Shown here in pieces: positions 27,958-48,140 of a stretch of DNA of 64,000 nucleotides. Every line of letters begins with the position of its first letter. Position 1 is the first letter of the stretch. Below the pieces are notes generated by a model. It did not search any database and was not told the origin of the DNA. It saw only the letters and a program-made list of their open reading frames with translations. The stretch is from an uncultured Muribaculaceae bacterium (GTDB taxonomy: Bacteria; Bacillota_I; Bacilli_A; RF39; UBA660). The stretch is from contig CAYJKH010000002.1 in assembly GCA_964371025.1 (NCBI GenBank), positions 58,929 to 122,928 of the forward strand, given 5' to 3'. The position numbers and the translations under genes are program-made.

Positions 27958-30579
27958 TTATGGTGTAGTTTCTGAATCTGGATCTTCTGGATCTGGAATT
28001 TCTGGATTTTCTGGATCTGGAATTTCAGGTTCTTCTGGTTCAACAATTACTTCTTCTTCTAAGTTATAAGTAACTGCACCACTTTGAACGCTATTATAGT
28101 CTTTATATGTTGCAACTATTTTATATACTCCGTAAGGAGAACTTGTATTAAATACATATCTAGTATCTTTAGTAAATGCTATTAATACACCATCCTTAAA
28201 TATATTGTATCCTAATTCACCATAAGCTTCATCTTCTTCAAGTCGAGCAACAGCGTTCCAACTCATTGTAACAGCAGTACTACCATCATAAGAAACATTG
28301 AAGTTTCCAGGATTAGCTAGTTTAGTAGCTGTGTTTGTATCATCTACTTCTCCAGTAGGTTCATGTCCTTTTTTAAATAATTCCATTGTTGTATTACCGC
28401 CTTCTGAACCAATAGCTGGAGGATTAGATCCTTTAACTATTGGAAGGGAAACAACACTATCTGGCATTTCAAATTTAGATCTATTTGATTCGATAGCTCC
28501 TGCATTTAAAAGAGCTTTCCATATTTTATCTTTTTCAATACTTGCTTGTAAATTTCTTAATACATAATCACTATCGATGAAATCATATCCATACCATAGA
28601 CCCATAACTGTATCAGGAGAGTAACCAATTAACCAAGAATCTGGAATAGCATCTCCTGGTAGACCATGTTTATTAATAGTTGCTACATCATAATTTGTTG
28701 TTCCTGTTTTTGCAGCAATATTAGTAGGAGTACCACCAGTTAATTGAATATCTTCTAAAACATCTGTAATCATATAAGCAGTAGCATCTGACATTGCTTG
28801 AACTGATTCAGTTTTAGTTTCAACTGTTTCATTTGTTTCACGATTTACATATTTTTTTATACTACTAGGTTCATTATAATAACCGCCATTAGCAAATGCA
28901 GCATAAGCAGCACTCATTTCTAAAGAATTAGTACCATTAAATCCACCAATAGAGTGGGCTTCATGTATCATTCCATTAGAAATTTCAGGAGTTATTCCTA
29001 AATTAGTAACCATTTCAATTATTTTATCATTATCAACTTCTTGGAAGGCTTTTAGTGCCGGTATATTTCTTGAAGTTGCTAAGGCTGTTCTTAAAGTAAT
29101 GTTCCCAAAGTAACCATTATCCCAGTTTTTAATTGATTGTCCACCAGAATAAGTATGGGGAGCATCGTTAAATATTTTAGCTGTAGACCAGTTATTGTAT
29201 TCTATACCAGGGGCATAATCAAATAAAGGCTTAGCAGTTGATCCTGGTTGGCGATTATTTTGAGTTGCATAATTCCACTGATTAGCACCTTCACGATTAC
29301 GTCCAGCTCCAATTGCTAAAATTTGACCAGTATCTGCATCTAATACAGATACTCCAGCTTGAACTTTATCATCTTTCCATGAGTAATCTTCACCGCTCAT
29401 AATACTATTAACTGCATCTTGTTTATCAGGATCCATGTTTGTATAGATAAGTAGAGGAGTTACATAGGGATTTAAATTATGTTTTTCATCCATTTCTTCA
29501 ACAACTGTATCAATATAATCTTGATATTCACTACTTTCATTAATACTAGAATCCACAATTAAAGATTCTACAGGAACTTCATTAGCGATTTTTGCCTCTT
29601 CAGCAGTAATATATCCATGTGTTTCCATCAAATGAAGAACTGTTTCACGTCTATTTTCAGCATTTTCAGGATTAATATCAGGTCTATAAATATTAGGAGA
29701 TTGGAAAAGTCCTGCTATAACAGCTGCTTCCGATAAATTTAATTGACTAACATCTTTTCCGAAGTAAGCCATTGAAGCTTCTTGAACTCCATAAACATTT
29801 CCTCCTAAGAAATGGTTATTTACATAAAATTCTATAATTTCTTGTTTTGAATAATCTTGCTCTAAATGGAATACAGATAAGTATACATCTGTAAACTTTC
29901 TAATAATCCCTTCAATACCAGATGCTTCAGTAGAAGTCATGGTATTTTTAATAACTTGCATTGATAAAGTAGAAGCACCACCGGCATTACTGTTACCCAT
30001 TAATTGCCCTAAAGATGCTTTAGCAAAACGAGGAGCATCCAGTCCGTTATGTTGGAAAAATCTCGAATCTTCAGTAGCGATAATTGCATCAACTAAAACT
30101 TCAGGCAATTGATCATAAGTAATTTTTTCTCTCATTTCACTACCGAGTTTAATTATTTCATCACCATTTTTATCATACATAATACTAACTTCTTTAGTAT
30201 TTAATTTTTTAGTTTCATATAATCCTTGAGCATCTATCATAATATATGCGAAAAATGCTACAAAGATAGTAATACCTATAATACATAAACTAAGTAAAAC
30301 AATAATTAAACGATTAACTCTTCTTCTTTTCTTTTTGTCATTTTTAGATTTTTTTAATATAATTGCTAATCCAATAATTAATAATAATCCTAAAGCAGTT
30401 ATTGCTGTGAAAATTAATCCCGTAACAAAATAGAAGACTACTAGTATTAAAGCAAGTAATACTAAAGTTATTTTAAAGTTCTTTTTTTCTAATCTTGTAA
30501 ATTTAACTTTAGGAGTTTTATTATTTGCTTCAAATTCTTTTGAAATAGATTTTTTATTTTTATTTTTTTTATTAGTCAT
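27958..30579 (-). CDS. ponA: bifunctional class A penicillin-binding protein 1A (glycosyltransferase + transpeptidase) with C-terminal Fn3-like region and PE-rich tail
   Basis: GT51 motifs EDSRFFQHNGLD and RKF. Transpeptidase SxxK STAKP, SxN SRN, KTGT. 873 aa. Confidence 0.92.
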   Translation of the reverse strand: MTNKKNKNKKSISKEFEANNKTPKVKFTRLEKKNFKITLVLLALILVVFYFVTGLIFTAITALGLLLIIGLAIILKKSKNDKKKRRRVNRLIIVLLSLCIIGITIFVAFFAYIMIDAQGLYETKKLNTKEVSIMYDKNGDEIIKLGSEMREKITYDQLPEVLVDAIIATEDSRFFQHNGLDAPRFAKASLGQLMGNSNAGGASTLSMQVIKNTMTSTEASGIEGIIRKFTDVYLSVFHLEQDYSKQEIIEFYVNNHFLGGNVYGVQEASMAYFGKDVSQLNLSEAAVIAGLFQSPNIYRPDINPENAENRRETVLHLMETHGYITAEEAKIANEVPVESLIVDSSINESSEYQDYIDTVVEEMDEKHNLNPYVTPLLIYTNMDPDKQDAVNSIMSGEDYSWKDDKVQAGVSVLDADTGQILAIGAGRNREGANQWNYATQNNRQPGSTAKPLFDYAPGIEYNNWSTAKIFNDAPHTYSGGQSIKNWDNGYFGNITLRTALATSRNIPALKAFQEVDNDKIIEMVTNLGITPEISNGMIHEAHSIGGFNGTNSLEMSAAYAAFANGGYYNEPSSIKKYVNRETNETVETKTESVQAMSDATAYMITDVLEDIQLTGGTPTNIAAKTGTTNYDVATINKHGLPGDAIPDSWLIGYSPDTVMGLWYGYDFIDSDYVLRNLQASIEKDKIWKALLNAGAIESNRSKFEMPDSVVSLPIVKGSNPPAIGSEGGNTTMELFKKGHEPTGEVDDTNTATKLANPGNFNVSYDGSTAVTMSWNAVARLEEDEAYGELGYNIFKDGVLIAFTKDTRYVFNTSSPYGVYKIVATYKDYNSVQSGAVTYNLEEEVIVEPEEPEIPDPENPEIPDPEDPDSETTP
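27975..28045. repeat. short tandem DNA repeat encoding the PEIPDPE tail of PBP1A
   Basis: Reiterated tctggatctggaatttctgga units. Confidence 0.45.
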
Positions 30580-31329: not shown

Positions 31330-31659
31330 ATGTATCAAAATAAAATAAATTTAATGCCACAAGATATTTTAGAAAAAGAATTTAAAATTGATACTCGTGG
31401 ATACAGATTAAAAGAAGTTGATCTATTTTTGGATACTGTTATTTCTGATTATGAACAGTTTTTGAATATGATAAATAATCTTGAAAAAGAAAAGGCTGAT
31501 TTACTTGGTGAGATTATGAAATTAAAACAAGAATTAAGAAATAATAGAATTAATGTAGAAGCAGCAAGAAGTAATGAAATGAATGAGGTTTCTAACGTTG
31601 ATATTTTAAGAAGAATATCACAATTAGAAAAATTAGTATACGGTGATAGAAATAATTAA
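31330..31659 (+). CDS. gpsB: cell-cycle protein GpsB (DivIVA domain)
   Basis: N-terminus MPQDILEKEFKIDTRGYRLKEVDLFLD. Adjacent rnpB as in Bacillus. Confidence 0.8.
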   Translation: MYQNKINLMPQDILEKEFKIDTRGYRLKEVDLFLDTVISDYEQFLNMINNLEKEKADLLGEIMKLKQELRNNRINVEAARSNEMNEVSNVDILRRISQLEKLVYGDRNN

Positions 31660-31663
31660 TATA

Positions 31664-32008
31664 TAGATAAACGCTGGTATTTTAAAATGCTTGAGGAAAG
31701 TCCATGCTCTCACAAACTGAGATGTTTGTAGTGTTCATGTATAGGGAAAAAATAACCTATAGTAGAGAAATCTAACGGAGGTAGTTAAGTCTAAGTCTTT
31801 GATATGATTTAATCCATAAAAGTGCCGCAGTGACGATAACTTTGGAAACGAAGGTGTGAAACGAGGTAAACCCCATGAGAGAGAAACCCAAATTTGGTAG
31901 GGGAATTCTAACGAAGGAATTAAACGGAGTTAGGAACTGTTTGTATATATACAAATGGTAGATAAATGTTTATCGCCTAGAAATAGGAACAGAACATGGC
32001 TTATTTAT
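31664..32008 (+). ncRNA. rnpB: RNase P RNA, bacterial type B
   Basis: GAGGAAAGTCCATGCTC, AGTGCCGCAGTGACG, GGTAAACCCCATGAGAGAGAAACCCAAATTTGGTAGGGGAA and ACAGAACATGGCTTA conserved blocks. Ends approximate. Confidence 0.85.
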
Positions 32009-42016: not shown

Positions 42017-44107
42017 ATGTTTAATAAAATAGTATATATAAGTGATAAAAGTGCTCATGTTAGTTTAAATACTGAAAAAGAAGTAACTATGAATTTAATG
42101 AATTTACACATAGTTTTTGATGATGGGATTAAACAAATTTTAGGAGAAATAGATGATTTAGATAAAAATATCGCTAAAATTAGATTTTTAGGAGAAATTG
42201 CTAATGATAGGCTATATTCAGGAGTTATTAGAAAACCAGCTATGGATGCAACTGTTAGAATTATTTCAAAAGAAGAAGTTCATTTAATAACAGGAGAAAA
42301 TAAAGCTGGGCAACTAAATTTAGGAGTTAGTCCTTTTTATAATGATTATCCAGTATACTTAGATGTAAATAGCTTCTTTTCAAATCACTTTTCGATTATT
42401 GGTAATAGTGGTTCTGGTAAAAGTTGTGGAGTATCTAGACTTATTCAAAATTTATTTTCAAATAAAAACTTATTCCCTTATAAATCGAATCTTTTATTTT
42501 TTGATTCATCTGGAGAATACTATAATGCATTTAAAGATATAAATAAAATAGATCCTAGTTATCATTTTAAATATATATCTACTAATGAAACGGATCCTAT
42601 GGTAGAAAAGTTAAGAATACCAATTTGGTTATTAAATGCAACAGATGTAGCATTATTATTACAAATAACAAATCATTCCCAAATACCAATTGTGGAAAGA
42701 ATGTTAAAACTAGCTAATATTTTTGCGCAAACTGGGGATGAAGCTAATAATTATAAAAACTACTTAATTGCAAAAGCAATAATGACTATTTTATATACTA
42801 ATGAAACAGCACCGAATAAAAGAAATGAAATTTTTTCAATTATAGCAAACTGTAGTACAGATCAATTTCATCTTGAGGCCGATCTTCAAGGAATTGGGTA
42901 TACAAGAAAATTTAGAGAATGCTTTTTAATTGATAACAGTGGTCAATTTACTGAAAGTGTTTTATTAACTGAATATATTTCTTCGTTTATAAAACCAGAA
43001 TATGAAACTTATGAGATTAATGAGAAAAATGCTTATAATTTAGAAACTTTAGAGAATGCTTTAAGTTTTACTTTAATAAGTGAAGGATGGTTAAGGAATG
43101 AACAAACTTATGGAGATGCTGTAACTATAAAAGTAAGATTACATTCTTTAATAACAGGAGAGTTAGCAAAATATTTTGATTATCAAGCAAATGCAACACT
43201 AGATAGTTTCTTATCTTCATTATTAATAGATAGTAATAGAAAATATCAAATTGTTAATATTAATTTTTCAGATGTTGATGATGACTTTGCAAAAGTAATT
43301 ACAAAAATATTTTCAAGAATGTTCTTTGATTTTGCAAAAGGATTAACTGATAGAGCAACAATTCCTTTTCATTTAATTATTGAAGAAGCTCATAGATATA
43401 TTCAAAATGATAGAGATAGATTCTTGTTTGGATATAATATATTTGAAAGAATAGCAAAAGAAGGAAGAAAGTATGGAGTTATTTTAGGATTAATTACCCA
43501 AAGACCTGTTGAACTTTCTGATACAGTAATTTCACAATGTTCTAACTTTTTAATATTCAAAATGAACCATCCTGTAGATGTGGAATATATTAGAAAGATG
43601 CTACCTAATATTAGTGATGAAATTGTTGAAAAACAAAAAACATTACAAGCAGGGACATGTTTAGGATTTGGATTTGCTTTTAAAATTCCAATCATTGTAA
43701 AATTAGAAATGCCAAACCCTTCACCATTAAGTGGAAGTGTTAACATTTACGGAGCGTGGAATGGTAATAAACCACAAAGCAACGTTGTAATACAAGAAGA
43801 TATTCCAGATCCAATGCCAATAGTAAATAAAGTAGTGGAAGCGGTTAAAGAACCAGTTGCAGAACCAGTATTACAAATACAAGCAGAAGCACCAACGATT
43901 CCAGTAGTGCAATCAGAGGTACAAGCAGCAGAACCAGTATTACAAATTCAAACAGAAGTACAACCAGAAATTCAACAGTCAGTTGTAGCAATCCCAGAAG
44001 TACAACATCAAGTTGCACCACAAGTGGAGATTCCTTTGCCGCAGCCTGCAGTTCAAGCATCAGTACAATCTGTTGATATAAACCAATTAACATCACTAGG
44101 AGAATAA
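42017..44107 (+). CDS. HerA/FtsK-superfamily (DUF87-like) ATPase with N-terminal HAS-barrel-like domain and C-terminal P/Q/V/E-rich repeat tail
   Basis: Walker A GNSGSGKS. Walker B region HLIIEEAHRYI. C-terminal GLITQRPVELSDTVISQCSNFLIFKMNHP block typical of HerA-like ATPases. Tail PVAEPVLQIQ... repeats. Confidence 0.65.
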   Translation: MFNKIVYISDKSAHVSLNTEKEVTMNLMNLHIVFDDGIKQILGEIDDLDKNIAKIRFLGEIANDRLYSGVIRKPAMDATVRIISKEEVHLITGENKAGQLNLGVSPFYNDYPVYLDVNSFFSNHFSIIGNSGSGKSCGVSRLIQNLFSNKNLFPYKSNLLFFDSSGEYYNAFKDINKIDPSYHFKYISTNETDPMVEKLRIPIWLLNATDVALLLQITNHSQIPIVERMLKLANIFAQTGDEANNYKNYLIAKAIMTILYTNETAPNKRNEIFSIIANCSTDQFHLEADLQGIGYTRKFRECFLIDNSGQFTESVLLTEYISSFIKPEYETYEINEKNAYNLETLENALSFTLISEGWLRNEQTYGDAVTIKVRLHSLITGELAKYFDYQANATLDSFLSSLLIDSNRKYQIVNINFSDVDDDFAKVITKIFSRMFFDFAKGLTDRATIPFHLIIEEAHRYIQNDRDRFLFGYNIFERIAKEGRKYGVILGLITQRPVELSDTVISQCSNFLIFKMNHPVDVEYIRKMLPNISDEIVEKQKTLQAGTCLGFGFAFKIPIIVKLEMPNPSPLSGSVNIYGAWNGNKPQSNVVIQEDIPDPMPIVNKVVEAVKEPVAEPVLQIQAEAPTIPVVQSEVQAAEPVLQIQTEVQPEIQQSVVAIPEVQHQVAPQVEIPLPQPAVQASVQSVDINQLTSLGE

Positions 44108-44184: not shown

Positions 44185-44271
44185 GCCTGTGTGGTGGAAT
44201 TGGTAGACACGTTGGACTCAAAATCCAATGGTAGAAATATCATGTCGGTTCAAGTCCGACCACAGGTACCA
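44185..44271 (+). tRNA. tRNA-Leu (anticodon CAA), CCA encoded
   Basis: 87 nt. Acceptor GCCTGTG/CACAGGT. Anticodon loop CUCAAAA. Long variable arm. T-loop GGTTCAAGTCC. Confidence 0.9.
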
Positions 44272-44366: not shown

Positions 44367-45164
44367 ATGAAAAGGGTTAAACTAATATGTGGTTTATTTA
44401 CTATTATGATACTAACAGGATGTAATGGAACAGTAACTAAGGAGTTAAGACATAATGGATTTAGTGTATCTGATGAAGAATTTATTTGTGATTATTTAAT
44501 TAAGGATGATTTAGTAGTGGGAGAAGTAAAATATTTAACAAATGATTTTGCTATATTAAATAATAATAAAATTTACGCTCTTTCGATTGGACAAAAATTT
44601 AGTAATGAAAAAAATTGTAAAGAATTAAAAAGTATAAAAGTATTATCAATAATAGATAACAAAATATTCTTAGGAGAAGATAATAAATTATATTATACTC
44701 CTACTAGTAAAAGTGAAGTAATAGAGTGTACTACAAAAGAAGATGATTATTATTTATATAAAGCATTATTAAATGATGGAAATGTAAAAATTATTTCAAT
44801 TGATCAAACCAATGGCATTTATTATATTTTGTCAGATGATGGAAATGTATATGAAGTAACTATTAATACAGAAACGTTTACAGAGTTAAATCGAAAATTA
44901 ATATATGATCATAAGAATTATGATGGGAAGATTGTAGACTTTAATTTTTCTTATAATAATCTTAATAGTCAATTTATAAAAACAAACACAAGTTATTATA
45001 GAAATCAAACAACTAATTTAGAAGAGTGTAGTATGTATGCTGATGTTCTTTGTCAATATAAATTTAGTAAAGATACTGTTATGACTGAATATGAAGATAA
45101 TATTCTACATTATAATGGAGATTTATTAATAACAACTTATGGGAAAATATTTAATATAAGCTAG
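44367..45164 (+). CDS. lipoprotein (hypothetical)
   Basis: Signal peptide with lipobox ILTGCNG. Confidence 0.55.
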   Translation: MKRVKLICGLFTIMILTGCNGTVTKELRHNGFSVSDEEFICDYLIKDDLVVGEVKYLTNDFAILNNNKIYALSIGQKFSNEKNCKELKSIKVLSIIDNKIFLGEDNKLYYTPTSKSEVIECTTKEDDYYLYKALLNDGNVKIISIDQTNGIYYILSDDGNVYEVTINTETFTELNRKLIYDHKNYDGKIVDFNFSYNNLNSQFIKTNTSYYRNQTTNLEECSMYADVLCQYKFSKDTVMTEYEDNILHYNGDLLITTYGKIFNIS

Positions 45165-46060: not shown

Positions 46061-46204
46061 TTTCATAAAAGTATAATAATGTTGGTATTAAAAAAGAGTA
46101 CTAATATTATTTTTTTTATTATGTAAATATACTAAAATATGTTTGCAATTGAATTATAAATTTGATATTATATTTATAAGATAGATAAAAGGGAGAAGAT
46201 TATT

Positions 46205-47221
46205 ATGGATAAATTTGATTTAAACTGGTTTACCTCAATACCAGGATTATTAATAACAGGGGGAGTTTTATTATTACTAATAGCAATTATTATGTTAATA
46301 GTAACAGGTAAAAAGTCTAAAAAGAAAACGGATGTTCAAACTCAGTCTACTCAAGAAGCACAACAATTAGCAGTAAATACTGCTGTGCCAATGGAGACAC
46401 AAGTTATGGATCCTATTCAACCAGGGCCAGTTGAACCAATTTCACAACCGATGATGAATGAAACTCCAGCAATTCCGGTAACACCTGAGCCGGCAGTGCA
46501 ACCAATGATGAATGAAATTCTAGCAATTCCAGTAACACCTGAGCCAGCAGTACAACCAATAATGAATGAAGTTCCTGCAGTTCCAATGGAGCCAGTGGCA
46601 CCGATGATGAATGAAATACCTATAGCAGCAATGCCTGCAGTAGAGCCAGTGGTTGCTATGCCAGAAGTAGTAATGCCTGTAGCAGAACCAGTAGTTGCTA
46701 TGCCAGAAGTAGCGATGCCTGTAGCAGAACCAGTAGTTGCTATGCCAGAAGTAGCAATGCCTGTAGCAGAACCAGTAGTTGCTATGCCAGAAGTAGCAAT
46801 GCCTGCAGTAGAACCAGTAGTTGCTATGCCAGAAGTAGCGATGCCTGCAGTAGAACCGGTAGTTGCTATGCCTGCAGTAGAACCAGCTCCAGTATCAATT
46901 TATGGTGGAGAATCTCCTATTATACCTAATATTAATATGAATACAGCACCTGCTAACCCAATATATGGGGGAGCAGATCCTTTAGAAAATACACAAACAG
47001 CATTAACTGCAATTGCACCAGCAATTGAACCAACACCAGTAGTTGAAACTACTCCAGTTATTGAACCAACTATAGCTCCAATGCCTCAAACAGTAATGCC
47101 AGCAGTTGCTCCAGTAGTTCAACCAATGCCAGTTATGCCTGGAGTTCAACAACCAATTCCACAGCCTGTACAACAACCAGTACAACCACAAGTTAGTGCA
47201 CAAAATATTGAAACAATGTAA
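46205..47221 (+). CDS. single-pass membrane protein with long Pro/Val/Ala/Met/Glu-rich tandem repeats
   Basis: N-terminal TM LLITGGVLLLLIAIIMLIV. Three 19-aa repeats QPMMNE.PAIPVTPEPAV, then five to six 14-aa repeats VAEPVVAMPEVAMP. Two PIYGG motifs. Confidence 0.55.
   Translation: MDKFDLNWFTSIPGLLITGGVLLLLIAIIMLIVTGKKSKKKTDVQTQSTQEAQQLAVNTAVPMETQVMDPIQPGPVEPISQPMMNETPAIPVTPEPAVQPMMNEILAIPVTPEPAVQPIMNEVPAVPMEPVAPMMNEIPIAAMPAVEPVVAMPEVVMPVAEPVVAMPEVAMPVAEPVVAMPEVAMPVAEPVVAMPEVAMPAVEPVVAMPEVAMPAVEPVVAMPAVEPAPVSIYGGESPIIPNINMNTAPANPIYGGADPLENTQTALTAIAPAIEPTPVVETTPVIEPTIAPMPQTVMPAVAPVVQPMPVMPGVQQPIPQPVQQPVQPQVSAQNIETM
46443..46613 (+). repeat. about three copies of a 57-bp tandem repeat inside the CDS
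   Basis: caaccRatgatgaatgaaaYtcYagcaattccRgtaacacctgagccRgcagtR reiterated. Confidence 0.6.
46633..46890 (+). repeat. five to six copies of a 42-bp tandem repeat inside the CDS
   Basis: gcctgYagYagaRccagtRgttgctatgccagaagtagYRat near-identical units. Confidence 0.7.
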
Positions 47222-47242
47222 TATAGAAGGTGGAGGAATAAA

Positions 47243-48043
47243 ATGAAGGGTTTACTAAGATTTATAATAAATACATGTTTGGCATTAATTATCGTATCAG
47301 CTATATTTTCTACTTTCTTATTCTTTAATACAGATGAAGATGGAGTTATTAGTATAAATGATACAAGTTTAATTCCAATAACAAATAGTGATTTAAGTCC
47401 TACCGTAGAAGAGATGGATTTAATATTTGTTAAAGCAATTACTAATTATGATGATATTGCAAAAAATGATGTTATTTCATATAAGAAAATAACAAATGAA
47501 AAAATGACAATTGAAACTAAAAGAGTATATTTAATTAATAAGACAGATGATGGATATACTTTTATTACAAAAACAGATACTGGTAATGTAGCTAATCAAG
47601 ATACAGTTAAAGCAAGTGATATTATTGGTAAATGGAATAACCAAAAAGTACTATTTGTAGGAGCTTATTTTGAATTTATTACTTCTATTATTGGATTTAT
47701 AGCAGTTGTTATAATACCTTTAACAGTATTAGTGATATTATTAATTGCTACTATTATTCAAAAACAAAAAAAGGTAGTAAAAGAAGCTGAAGAAGATAAT
47801 ATATCAGTAGAAACTAATCACTATGAGCATACTCAAGTATTAGGTAAAATTACAGAAGATAATATTATGGATTATGATAAAAAGAAATTAGAAGTAGAAA
47901 ATTCTGAAGTTGCTAAGGGAGTAAAAGAAGAAAAACCAACAATTCAAGAAGAAGTAGATAATGTAGAGCAAATCTTAAACAAAGAAGCTACTGCAGAAGA
48001 AACTAAAGAAGTAAAAAAAGAAGAGGATATTGAAGTTTTATAA
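47243..48043 (+). CDS. SipW/ER-type (S26B) signal-peptidase-like membrane protein with divergent catalytic motif and acidic C-terminal tail
   Basis: N-terminal TM, region LIPITNSDLSPTVEEMDLIFVK resembling the SGSMEPT..GD..V box, second TM near residue 150. Catalytic Ser/His assignment uncertain. Confidence 0.4.
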   Translation: MKGLLRFIINTCLALIIVSAIFSTFLFFNTDEDGVISINDTSLIPITNSDLSPTVEEMDLIFVKAITNYDDIAKNDVISYKKITNEKMTIETKRVYLINKTDDGYTFITKTDTGNVANQDTVKASDIIGKWNNQKVLFVGAYFEFITSIIGFIAVVIIPLTVLVILLIATIIQKQKKVVKEAEEDNISVETNHYEHTQVLGKITEDNIMDYDKKKLEVENSEVAKGVKEEKPTIQEEVDNVEQILNKEATAEETKEVKKEEDIEVL

Positions 48044-48140
48044 AAATGATAAGAAGATTAGTCTTCTTTTTTTTATTAATATCGACAATATTATAAAAAA
48101 ATGATAAAATTAAATATATTCTAATTACTAGGAGGCAAAC

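Follow-up and report, generated by a model that had tools for sequence, protein, structure and literature searches.

The locus described here lies in a 64,000-nucleotide (nt) window of contig CAYJKH010000002.1 and consists of two open reading frames (ORFs), gene A (46205-47221, 338 amino acids, aa) and gene B (47243-48043, 266 aa), both on the plus strand at the coordinates given in an initial annotation of this DNA. All features below are on the plus strand unless otherwise indicated. Gene A is preceded by a sigma-A-type promoter that matches the consensus (46142-46171; TTTGCA / TTGCAA, 17-18 nt, TG-n-TATTAT), and a terminator-like hairpin followed by U8 (46075-46118; -14.2 kcal/mol, z = -3.68, with 0 of 200 shuffles folding as well) closes the methyltransferase unit upstream. 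Gene B lies directly 3' of gene A, as had been stated, with a spacer of 21 nt and not 22. This spacer folds at 0 kcal/mol, i.e. there is no hairpin between the genes, and it contains the ribosome-binding site of gene B, GGTGGAGG (47226-47237). A weak terminator-like hairpin with U8 follows gene B (48051-48075; -6.7 kcal/mol, z = -1.86). Across related loci the A-B distance is 13-40 nt; no terminator separates the genes, and hairpins flank the pair. Since the spacer is short, unstructured and carries a ribosome-binding site, and since terminator-like hairpins flank the pair, A and B form a bicistronic operon.

The region 46120-46204 is strongly conserved with about 25 related loci and follows the pattern AAAATGTTTGCA(A/T)TTG ... 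TTTTTTTGnTATCAT ... AGAGGGAG. Upstream of gene A, the promoter layout in about 25 divergent loci is ATGTTTGCA(A/T)TTG ... TGnTATCAT ... AGAGGGAG, and the elements common to them are TTTGCA, TGnTATCAT and AGAGGGAG. In several loci this region can be translated in frame with gene A, giving a spurious N-terminal extension, MFAIANFFCYHNIRIKSRGSRY, which could mislead both gene callers and topology predictors. A coding role for the in-frame extension upstream of A (MFAIAN...) was considered and rejected, the stretch being the conserved promoter; in the window a stop codon shuts it off, so that it is non-coding there.

The product of gene A had been described as a single-pass membrane protein, in agreement with the one hydrophobic helix found at residues 12-34. 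In the AlphaFold model this helix is the only ordered part of the protein (predicted local distance difference test, pLDDT, 81-91). It belongs to a conserved N-terminal anchor (46205-46327) formed by a stub MxxFDxxWFxxxPG, the helix LLITGGVLLL... and a basic cluster KKSKKK. The family consensus of this anchor is MxxFDxxWFxxxPGxxI[TS]GGVLLL followed by a cluster of 4-6 Lys/Arg, and residues F9, G14, I17, G20, L23 and A27 are invariant in 71 A sequences. The net charge is -1 on the N-terminal side of the helix and +4 on the C-terminal side, and throughout the family the N-flank has 0-1 basic residues and the C-flank 4-6. Because the basic cluster comes after the helix, the positive-inside rule predicts an N-out/C-in topology for A, with its disordered part in the cytoplasm.

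The remainder of the protein has a high content of P, V, A, E and M, and A as a whole has no Cys. Real DNA repeats encode part of it (46444-46880), namely Pro-rich tandem repeats with a 54-nt unit present 2.6 times (46444-46585) and a 42-nt unit present 6.0 times with 93% matches (46627-46880). The earlier view that the protein is made almost entirely of tandem repeats was correct as to their nature and composition and exaggerated their extent, since they span about 40% of the gene. Hypervariability of the repeat region was borne out: among five strains with 99% identity elsewhere and a synonymous divergence (dS) of gene B of about 0.03, the sole difference in the A spacer is how often a 15-aa unit is repeated, from about 2 to 9 copies. 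The gene A spacer is hypervariable in repeat number.

Downstream of the repeats lies an invariant motif, PVxIYGGxSPIxPxxN...IYGGAxPLENTQ (residues 229-264; 46889-46996), which at the family level reads PV-IYGG-x-SP...IYGGA-[ND]-PLENTQ. Positions I253, Y254, G255, G256, A257, P259 and T263 are invariant in the 71 sequences, and the motif is predicted to be disordered (pLDDT about 55). The family thus has four parts: the anchor with its basic cluster, a P/V/A/E/Q-rich spacer with no conserved sequence among relatives, the invariant motif and a P/V/Q-rich tail. Gene A of the window has all three defining elements (anchor plus basic cluster, Pro-rich spacer and IYGG motif). A profile search gave at least 287 protein clusters of this family, and a scan with the conserved motifs gave at least 125 metagenome loci; none of the clusters has a Pfam domain or a functional name, all being "hypothetical". 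Their sources are "Bacilli bacterium" metagenome-assembled genomes and Candidatus Faecimonas (Bacilli incertae sedis at NCBI), that is, gut and rumen Bacilli. Gene A is therefore a member of a large, unnamed and undescribed family of disordered proteins. The exact gene A protein is absent from a collection of 15 billion proteins that does include neighbors encoded on the same 171.5-kb NCBI contig; the gene may be unannotated, or called with another start, in the source record.

Gene B had been likened to SipW-type (S26B) signal peptidases, and profile, homolog and fold comparisons all supported this. B scored 57.5 bits (E 1.4e-15) against TIGR02228, the NCBIfam profile of archaeal/ER-type signal peptidase I, whose curated cutoff is 51.85. 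Against the SipW equivalog NF046067 it scored 50.6 bits (E 1.7e-13), below the cutoff of 190. No Pfam family, S24/S26 included, matched B. An exhaustive HMMER search with residues 1-190 recovered 1262 homologs at E<=1e-3; a word-indexed protein search with B alone returned only 2 relatives, and a PDB sequence search with B returned noise only. The AlphaFold model of B, built on 83 homologs, has pLDDT above 90 over residues 1-190 and consists of a first transmembrane helix (TM1), a beta core, a second transmembrane helix (TM2; 47687-47770, also indicated by hydrophobicity and charge flanks) and a disordered tail, in line with the layout first proposed. A Foldseek ranking of solved structures against this model placed human SEC11C and SEC11A first, then SipA, then SpsB; the SEC11A/SEC11C matches (PDB 7p2p, 7p2q) had E of 1e-4 to 3e-4 and a TM-score of 0.57 on target. 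The positive-inside flanks predict a SipW-like topology, with the N-terminus in, the S26 core out and the tail in. B is thus an S26B (SipW/SEC11-type) signal-peptidase homolog.

The catalytic columns of B were read in an alignment of the 150 best homologs, which agreed with the motifs first reported. The SGSMEP box reads NSDLSP, so that Asp50 (codon 47390-47392) occupies the column of the catalytic Ser, which is Ser in 136 of the 150. THRI reads TKRV, with Lys93 (47519-47521) in the catalytic His column (His in 132/150). The third triad residue is kept as Asp112 (47576-47578; Asp in 138/150), where KGDxN reads KTDTGN and the Gly preceding Asp112 in the GDxN box is replaced by Thr. The alignment gave B neither a canonical dyad nor any lack of S26 homology. 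The TIGR02228 cutoff is passed by B although the catalytic Ser and His are absent, and the NCBI pipeline would probably name B "signal peptidase I", as it probably would the whole clade.

These losses are not confined to B. In a neighbor-joining tree the B clade comprises 13 representatives, in which the His is gone from all and the Ser from most; the states of the triad columns are TGD, TAD, SKD, DAD, SGD, SGE and more degenerate ones. P0012, with an intact triad, branches beside this clade. Every SipW-like ORF directly 3' of a gene A copy has K, A, S or N in the His column and D, E, I or V in the Ser column, a pattern seen in three divergent groups, Candidatus Faecimonas included. A close relative of B on contig L001, cut off upstream, keeps the Ser and has Gly in the His column. 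The ratio of nonsynonymous to synonymous rates (dN/dS) of the B genes is 0.16-0.38 for unsaturated pairs, indicating purifying selection, and the genes are intact. Because the His is lost clade-wide and the replacements are inconsistent, yet selection is purifying, we strongly favor a pseudo-peptidase as the interpretation of the B sequence. Further S26B-like paralogs are found 4-5 kb upstream of gene A in two loci: that of L005 (740-1448) has lost Ser, His and Asp and ends in ...EEFYDEEII, and that of L016 (255-864) keeps Ser and His and has lost the Asp. The lineage seems, from these sequences, to be prone to duplicate and disable SipW-like genes.

The initial annotation had left open whether B is a pseudo-peptidase or uses a different chemistry. 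The former is the part that stands, and the latter, in which B would be active through, for example, a P-type-like Ser/Lys dyad formed by Ser49 or Ser52 with Lys93, is in our view very unlikely. Lys93 does lie exactly at the general-base column, where P-type signal peptidases use Lys (PMC8767453, PMC10269814). Ser49 and Ser52 stand on either side of Asp50, and one relative, P0039, has the Ser kept together with Lys at the base column. A His87Lys mutant of SipW is also reported to retain activity. On the other hand, the aligned nucleophile of B is Asp, and moving the alignment over by one residue takes the conserved Met and Pro out of register. The states of the A-linked orthologs and of the L001 relative, given above, differ between lineages, so that no alternative catalytic pair is conserved. 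Moreover, the equivalent Asp48 and a nearby Lys83 of Streptococcus pyogenes SipA play no part in activity (PMC4049620).

SipA (LepA; PDB 4n31) is the third-best structural match of B and the closest precedent for its state. In this protein the Ser is replaced by Asp48 and the Lys by Gly85, the peptide cleft is kept, there is no activity, and the protein is essential for pilus assembly, in which it serves for binding or as a chaperone without catalysis (PMC4049620). B shares with it a signal-peptidase fold without the catalytic pair, the same Ser-to-Asp change and a Lys nearby. SipA, however, belongs to the P-type (S26A, Ser/Lys) branch, has one transmembrane helix and no cytoplasmic tail, and lies in a sortase/pilin cluster, whereas B falls in the ER-type branch by its best profile and structure matches and has two transmembrane helices and a tail. 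No sortase or pilin genes were found in the 64-kb window. Coming from the wrong ancestral branch and having no pilus locus, B is not a member of the SipA family. The best structural matches, SEC11A and SEC11C, are catalytic subunits of the eukaryotic signal peptidase complex and share the S26B branch with B; SEC11 is an active enzyme that acts alongside accessory subunits, whereas in B the Ser and His are gone and a second transmembrane helix and a tail are present.

Bacillus subtilis SipW requires Ser47, His87 and Asp106 for catalysis, and its peptidase-independent function requires the 20 C-terminal cytoplasmic residues (PMC8767453). B is homologous to SipW and, by prediction, arranged in the same way, with an N-in TM1, an extracellular core, TM2 and a cytoplasmic tail. 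Unlike SipW, it has Asp, Lys and Asp at the triad positions, an acidic tail of about 90 residues ending in DIEVL and no tapA or tasA neighbor. No TasA/camelysin gene was found anywhere in the window. The suggested echo of the tapA-sipW arrangement without tasA held for the absence of tasA and failed for the analogy with TapA. TapA, of 253 aa, is secreted and has conserved cysteines and a Sec signal peptide that is cleaved off (PMC4551309). As an analog of A it was rejected: A matched no Pfam or NCBIfam family, has no Cys and no positive n-region, its basic cluster comes after the helix and it belongs to a large family of its own. A canonical SipW encoded in L002 adjoins an ORF judged TasA/camelysin-like by eye only.

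The long acidic C-terminal extension noted earlier is a predicted cytoplasmic, disordered tail of 90 residues, 21 of them Glu (47771-48040; pLDDT about 50). It ends in a clade-specific peptide, EEDIEVL (48020-48040), for which many members of the B clade have the consensus (D/E)(D/E)xIE[VI]L. Of the 150 homologs, 10 end in [DE]-I-E-[VI]-L, always in the B clade and once in the triad-intact P0012, whose tail reads DIEIL. The length of the acidic linker between TM2 and the peptide differs among relatives of B.

Relatives of B led to loci whose upstream gene is a clear A ortholog; a search with a two-sequence alignment yielded just 2 genome loci, each truncated upstream of the gene. Synteny is conserved: in most cases a lipoprotein-like gene comes first, followed by an S-adenosylmethionine methyltransferase gene (about 70% identical in 54 loci), usually a pseudouridine synthase gene, and A. 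The lipoprotein-like gene of the window (44367-45164) encodes 265 aa that begin with a lipoprotein-type signal (…ILTGC) and match no family in Pfam or NCBIfam. In 21 related loci it is kept, at 36-44% identity, just 5' of the block made up of the methyltransferase gene and gene A. A hybrid histidine kinase gene lies upstream of the methyltransferase gene in the Faecimonas loci.

The gene next after A was determined in the 64 metagenome loci with at least 650 nt downstream of A. In 28 of them it was a GT4 glycosyltransferase gene, the first of a GT4/Alg14/Alg13-like cluster. B, the S26B-like gene, came next in 10 (about 16%), SpoVS in 7, a lactate/malate dehydrogenase in 4 and an Alg14-like gene in 2, and in the remaining 13 there was another gene or none. 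Where present, B separates A from the GT4 gene; the window differs in that PFOR comes after B. In L003, L004, L089 and L090 the downstream cluster consists of GT4, Alg14-like and Alg13/GtrA-like genes, a gene for an unknown 188-aa protein, NAGPA (phosphodiester glycosidase) and a weak T4SS_pilin-like match, to which L003 and L004 add a GT2 gene. This cluster is possibly an envelope glycopolymer locus tied to gene A. The L001 contig (CAYJDP010000021.1) is labeled "uncultured Muribaculaceae bacterium" and carries, besides the close relative of B, a GT4/Alg14/Alg13 cluster typical of low-GC Bacilli loci; it looks mis-binned.

From this census A can be regarded as the core, lineage-wide gene and B as an accessory partner. 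The initial annotation had overlooked that A usually occurs without an adjacent B, as well as the anchor and IYGG...PLENTQ motif of A and the DIEVL peptide of B. The gene orders also bear on the view that A and B are functionally unlinked, with B a decaying or neutral SipW paralog beside a highly expressed gene. In keeping with that view, B is not next after A in 54 of the 64 informative loci, and the features of A are independent of B. The purifying selection on B, its intact ORFs and confidently predicted fold, and its clade-specific and conserved C-terminal peptide all contradict it, as does the tight A-B adjacency in three divergent lineages. We give this view little credence, about as little as that of an active B. 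Because the adjacency recurs in these three groups, the gene orders argue for a functional link between A and B, which would not be obligatory.

The reading that we prefer, with moderate confidence, is that B is a pseudo-peptidase derived from an S26B ancestor that binds without cutting and works with A. B would be a non-catalytic, SipW-derived membrane adaptor whose extracellular, membrane-proximal S26 domain may serve as a peptide- or helix-binding module, by analogy with S. pyogenes SipA. Its acidic cytoplasmic tail with the (D/E)(D/E)xIE[VI]L peptide may be the output or docking end, in parallel to the function of the SipW tail. A would be an N-out/C-in anchored, disordered tether of variable length acting in the membrane with B, and its IYGG...IYGGAxPLENTQ motif would recruit a partner, maybe from the envelope glycosyltransferase cluster that adjoins A in most relatives.

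Several points weigh against this reading. The low proportion of loci in which B follows A is one of them; another is that the conserved elements of A are equally kept with and without an adjacent B, from which it follows that the main function of A does not need B next to it. Some B orthologs have short tails and no IE[VI]L peptide, so the tail cannot be a universal output. The Lys at the base position and the two Ser residues beside Asp50 would be the material for residual Ser/Lys-type activity, which the sequences make unlikely. Finally, contact between A and B is something that we infer, and so are the role of B in binding, the cellular process served and the topology of A, which is predicted from the positive-inside rule only.

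The topology of A is the point at which a different model diverges. In that model A would be N-in/C-out and form an extracellular, wall-spanning stalk, and the cleft of B would hold the GGA(S/N)P motifs as uncleavable pseudo-substrates, so that B would chaperone or anchor a surface fibril in the manner of SipA. Strain-to-strain variation in repeat copy number is typical of Gram-positive surface proteins, and the S26 domain of B is predicted to be extracellular. The sequences IYGG-A-S-P and IYGG-A-[ND]-P would put small residues at -3 and -1 and then Pro, and a Pro at +1 renders a substrate uncleavable by signal peptidase I. SipA, moreover, binds its partners at the cell surface (PMC4049620). 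The family-wide distribution of basic residues around the helix predicts the opposite orientation, however, and the A motif is equally conserved where no B is adjacent. A further counterpoint comes from a HerA/FtsK-like P-loop ATPase encoded upstream (42017-44107; DUF87, E 1e-21, far under the HerA equivalog cutoffs), which has no obvious membrane or secretion signal and is presumed to be cytoplasmic. About 100 residues at its C-terminus form a Pro/Val/Gln/Glu-rich tail, which includes a short tandem repeat (43944-43976) and is similar in composition to the gene A spacer; P/V/Q/E-type regions thus exist on a presumed cytoplasmic protein in this organism. We consider the surface stalk unlikely. 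A class A penicillin-binding protein of the window (27958-30579, minus strand) likewise bears a short, acidic, Pro-rich tail (…EPEEPEIPDPENPEIPDPEDPDSETTP) at its extracellular C-terminus, a point for the stalk that was rejected as evidence on the topology of A. The N-terminal region of this protein, about 140 residues ahead of the transglycosylase domain, is unusually long and contains two hydrophobic stretches.

For the N-out/C-in arrangement that we prefer, ZipA-type bitopic proteins offer a comparison. These have an N-out anchor, a charged segment and a P/Q-rich linker. Gene A resembles them in architecture only, through its N-terminal anchor, with most of the protein predicted to lie in the cytoplasm, its basic juxtamembrane segment and its long Pro-rich flexible linker; Pfam and NCBIfam profile searches detected no sequence similarity to them. 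Unlike ZipA, A has no globular C-terminal domain and carries a short invariant motif instead.

A bolder extension of the adaptor reading, for which the chances seem slim and slightly below those of the surface stalk, is that A-B is an undescribed transmembrane scaffold or signaling device, with the retained extracellular cleft of B as sensor or dock, DIEVL as cytoplasmic output, A as a disordered tether of tunable length and the A motif organizing envelope glycopolymer synthesis by the adjacent GT4/Alg14/Alg13-like cluster. If this were true, the tail-dependent second function of SipW would be old enough to have outlived its peptidase function, and IYGG...PLENTQ would be a new, lineage-wide short linear motif.

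The rest of the window is chromosomal DNA of a cell-walled member of the Bacillota, with a low GC content of about 25%. Besides the class A penicillin-binding protein, its housekeeping genes encode two FemAB proteins, Mur ligases, RecA, RecU, DnaD, RNases Y and J, FtsY and YlxM. Further upstream of A-B lies a class B RNase P RNA (31658-32008; 251 bits), and a tRNA-Leu(CAA) gene (44185-44271) is placed between the HerA-like and lipoprotein-like genes. A search with a B. subtilis SipS sequence matched no P-type signal peptidase in the window or the loci, which is a weak negative. The class B RNase P RNA, together with the source names of the relatives ("Bacilli bacterium" and Candidatus Faecimonas), indicates that the host of A and B is a low-GC bacterium of the class Bacilli, an uncultured inhabitant of the gut.

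Pseudo-signal-peptidases are known from the P-type branch, through SipA of the streptococcal pilus loci. What is new here is that the ER/archaeal-type branch would also have yielded, in bacteria, a conserved, selected and catalytically dead clade with a C-terminal peptide of its own. B should not be filed as "signal peptidase I", since the Ser and His, two defining features of an active S26B peptidase, are gone. Given the bifunctionality reported for SipW, the B clade may represent a natural case of separation of function. The gene A family, newly defined here, unites extreme repeat variability, an invariant motif and a conserved promoter in poorly known Bacilli and offers a tractable entry into the envelope biology of these gut and rumen bacteria.

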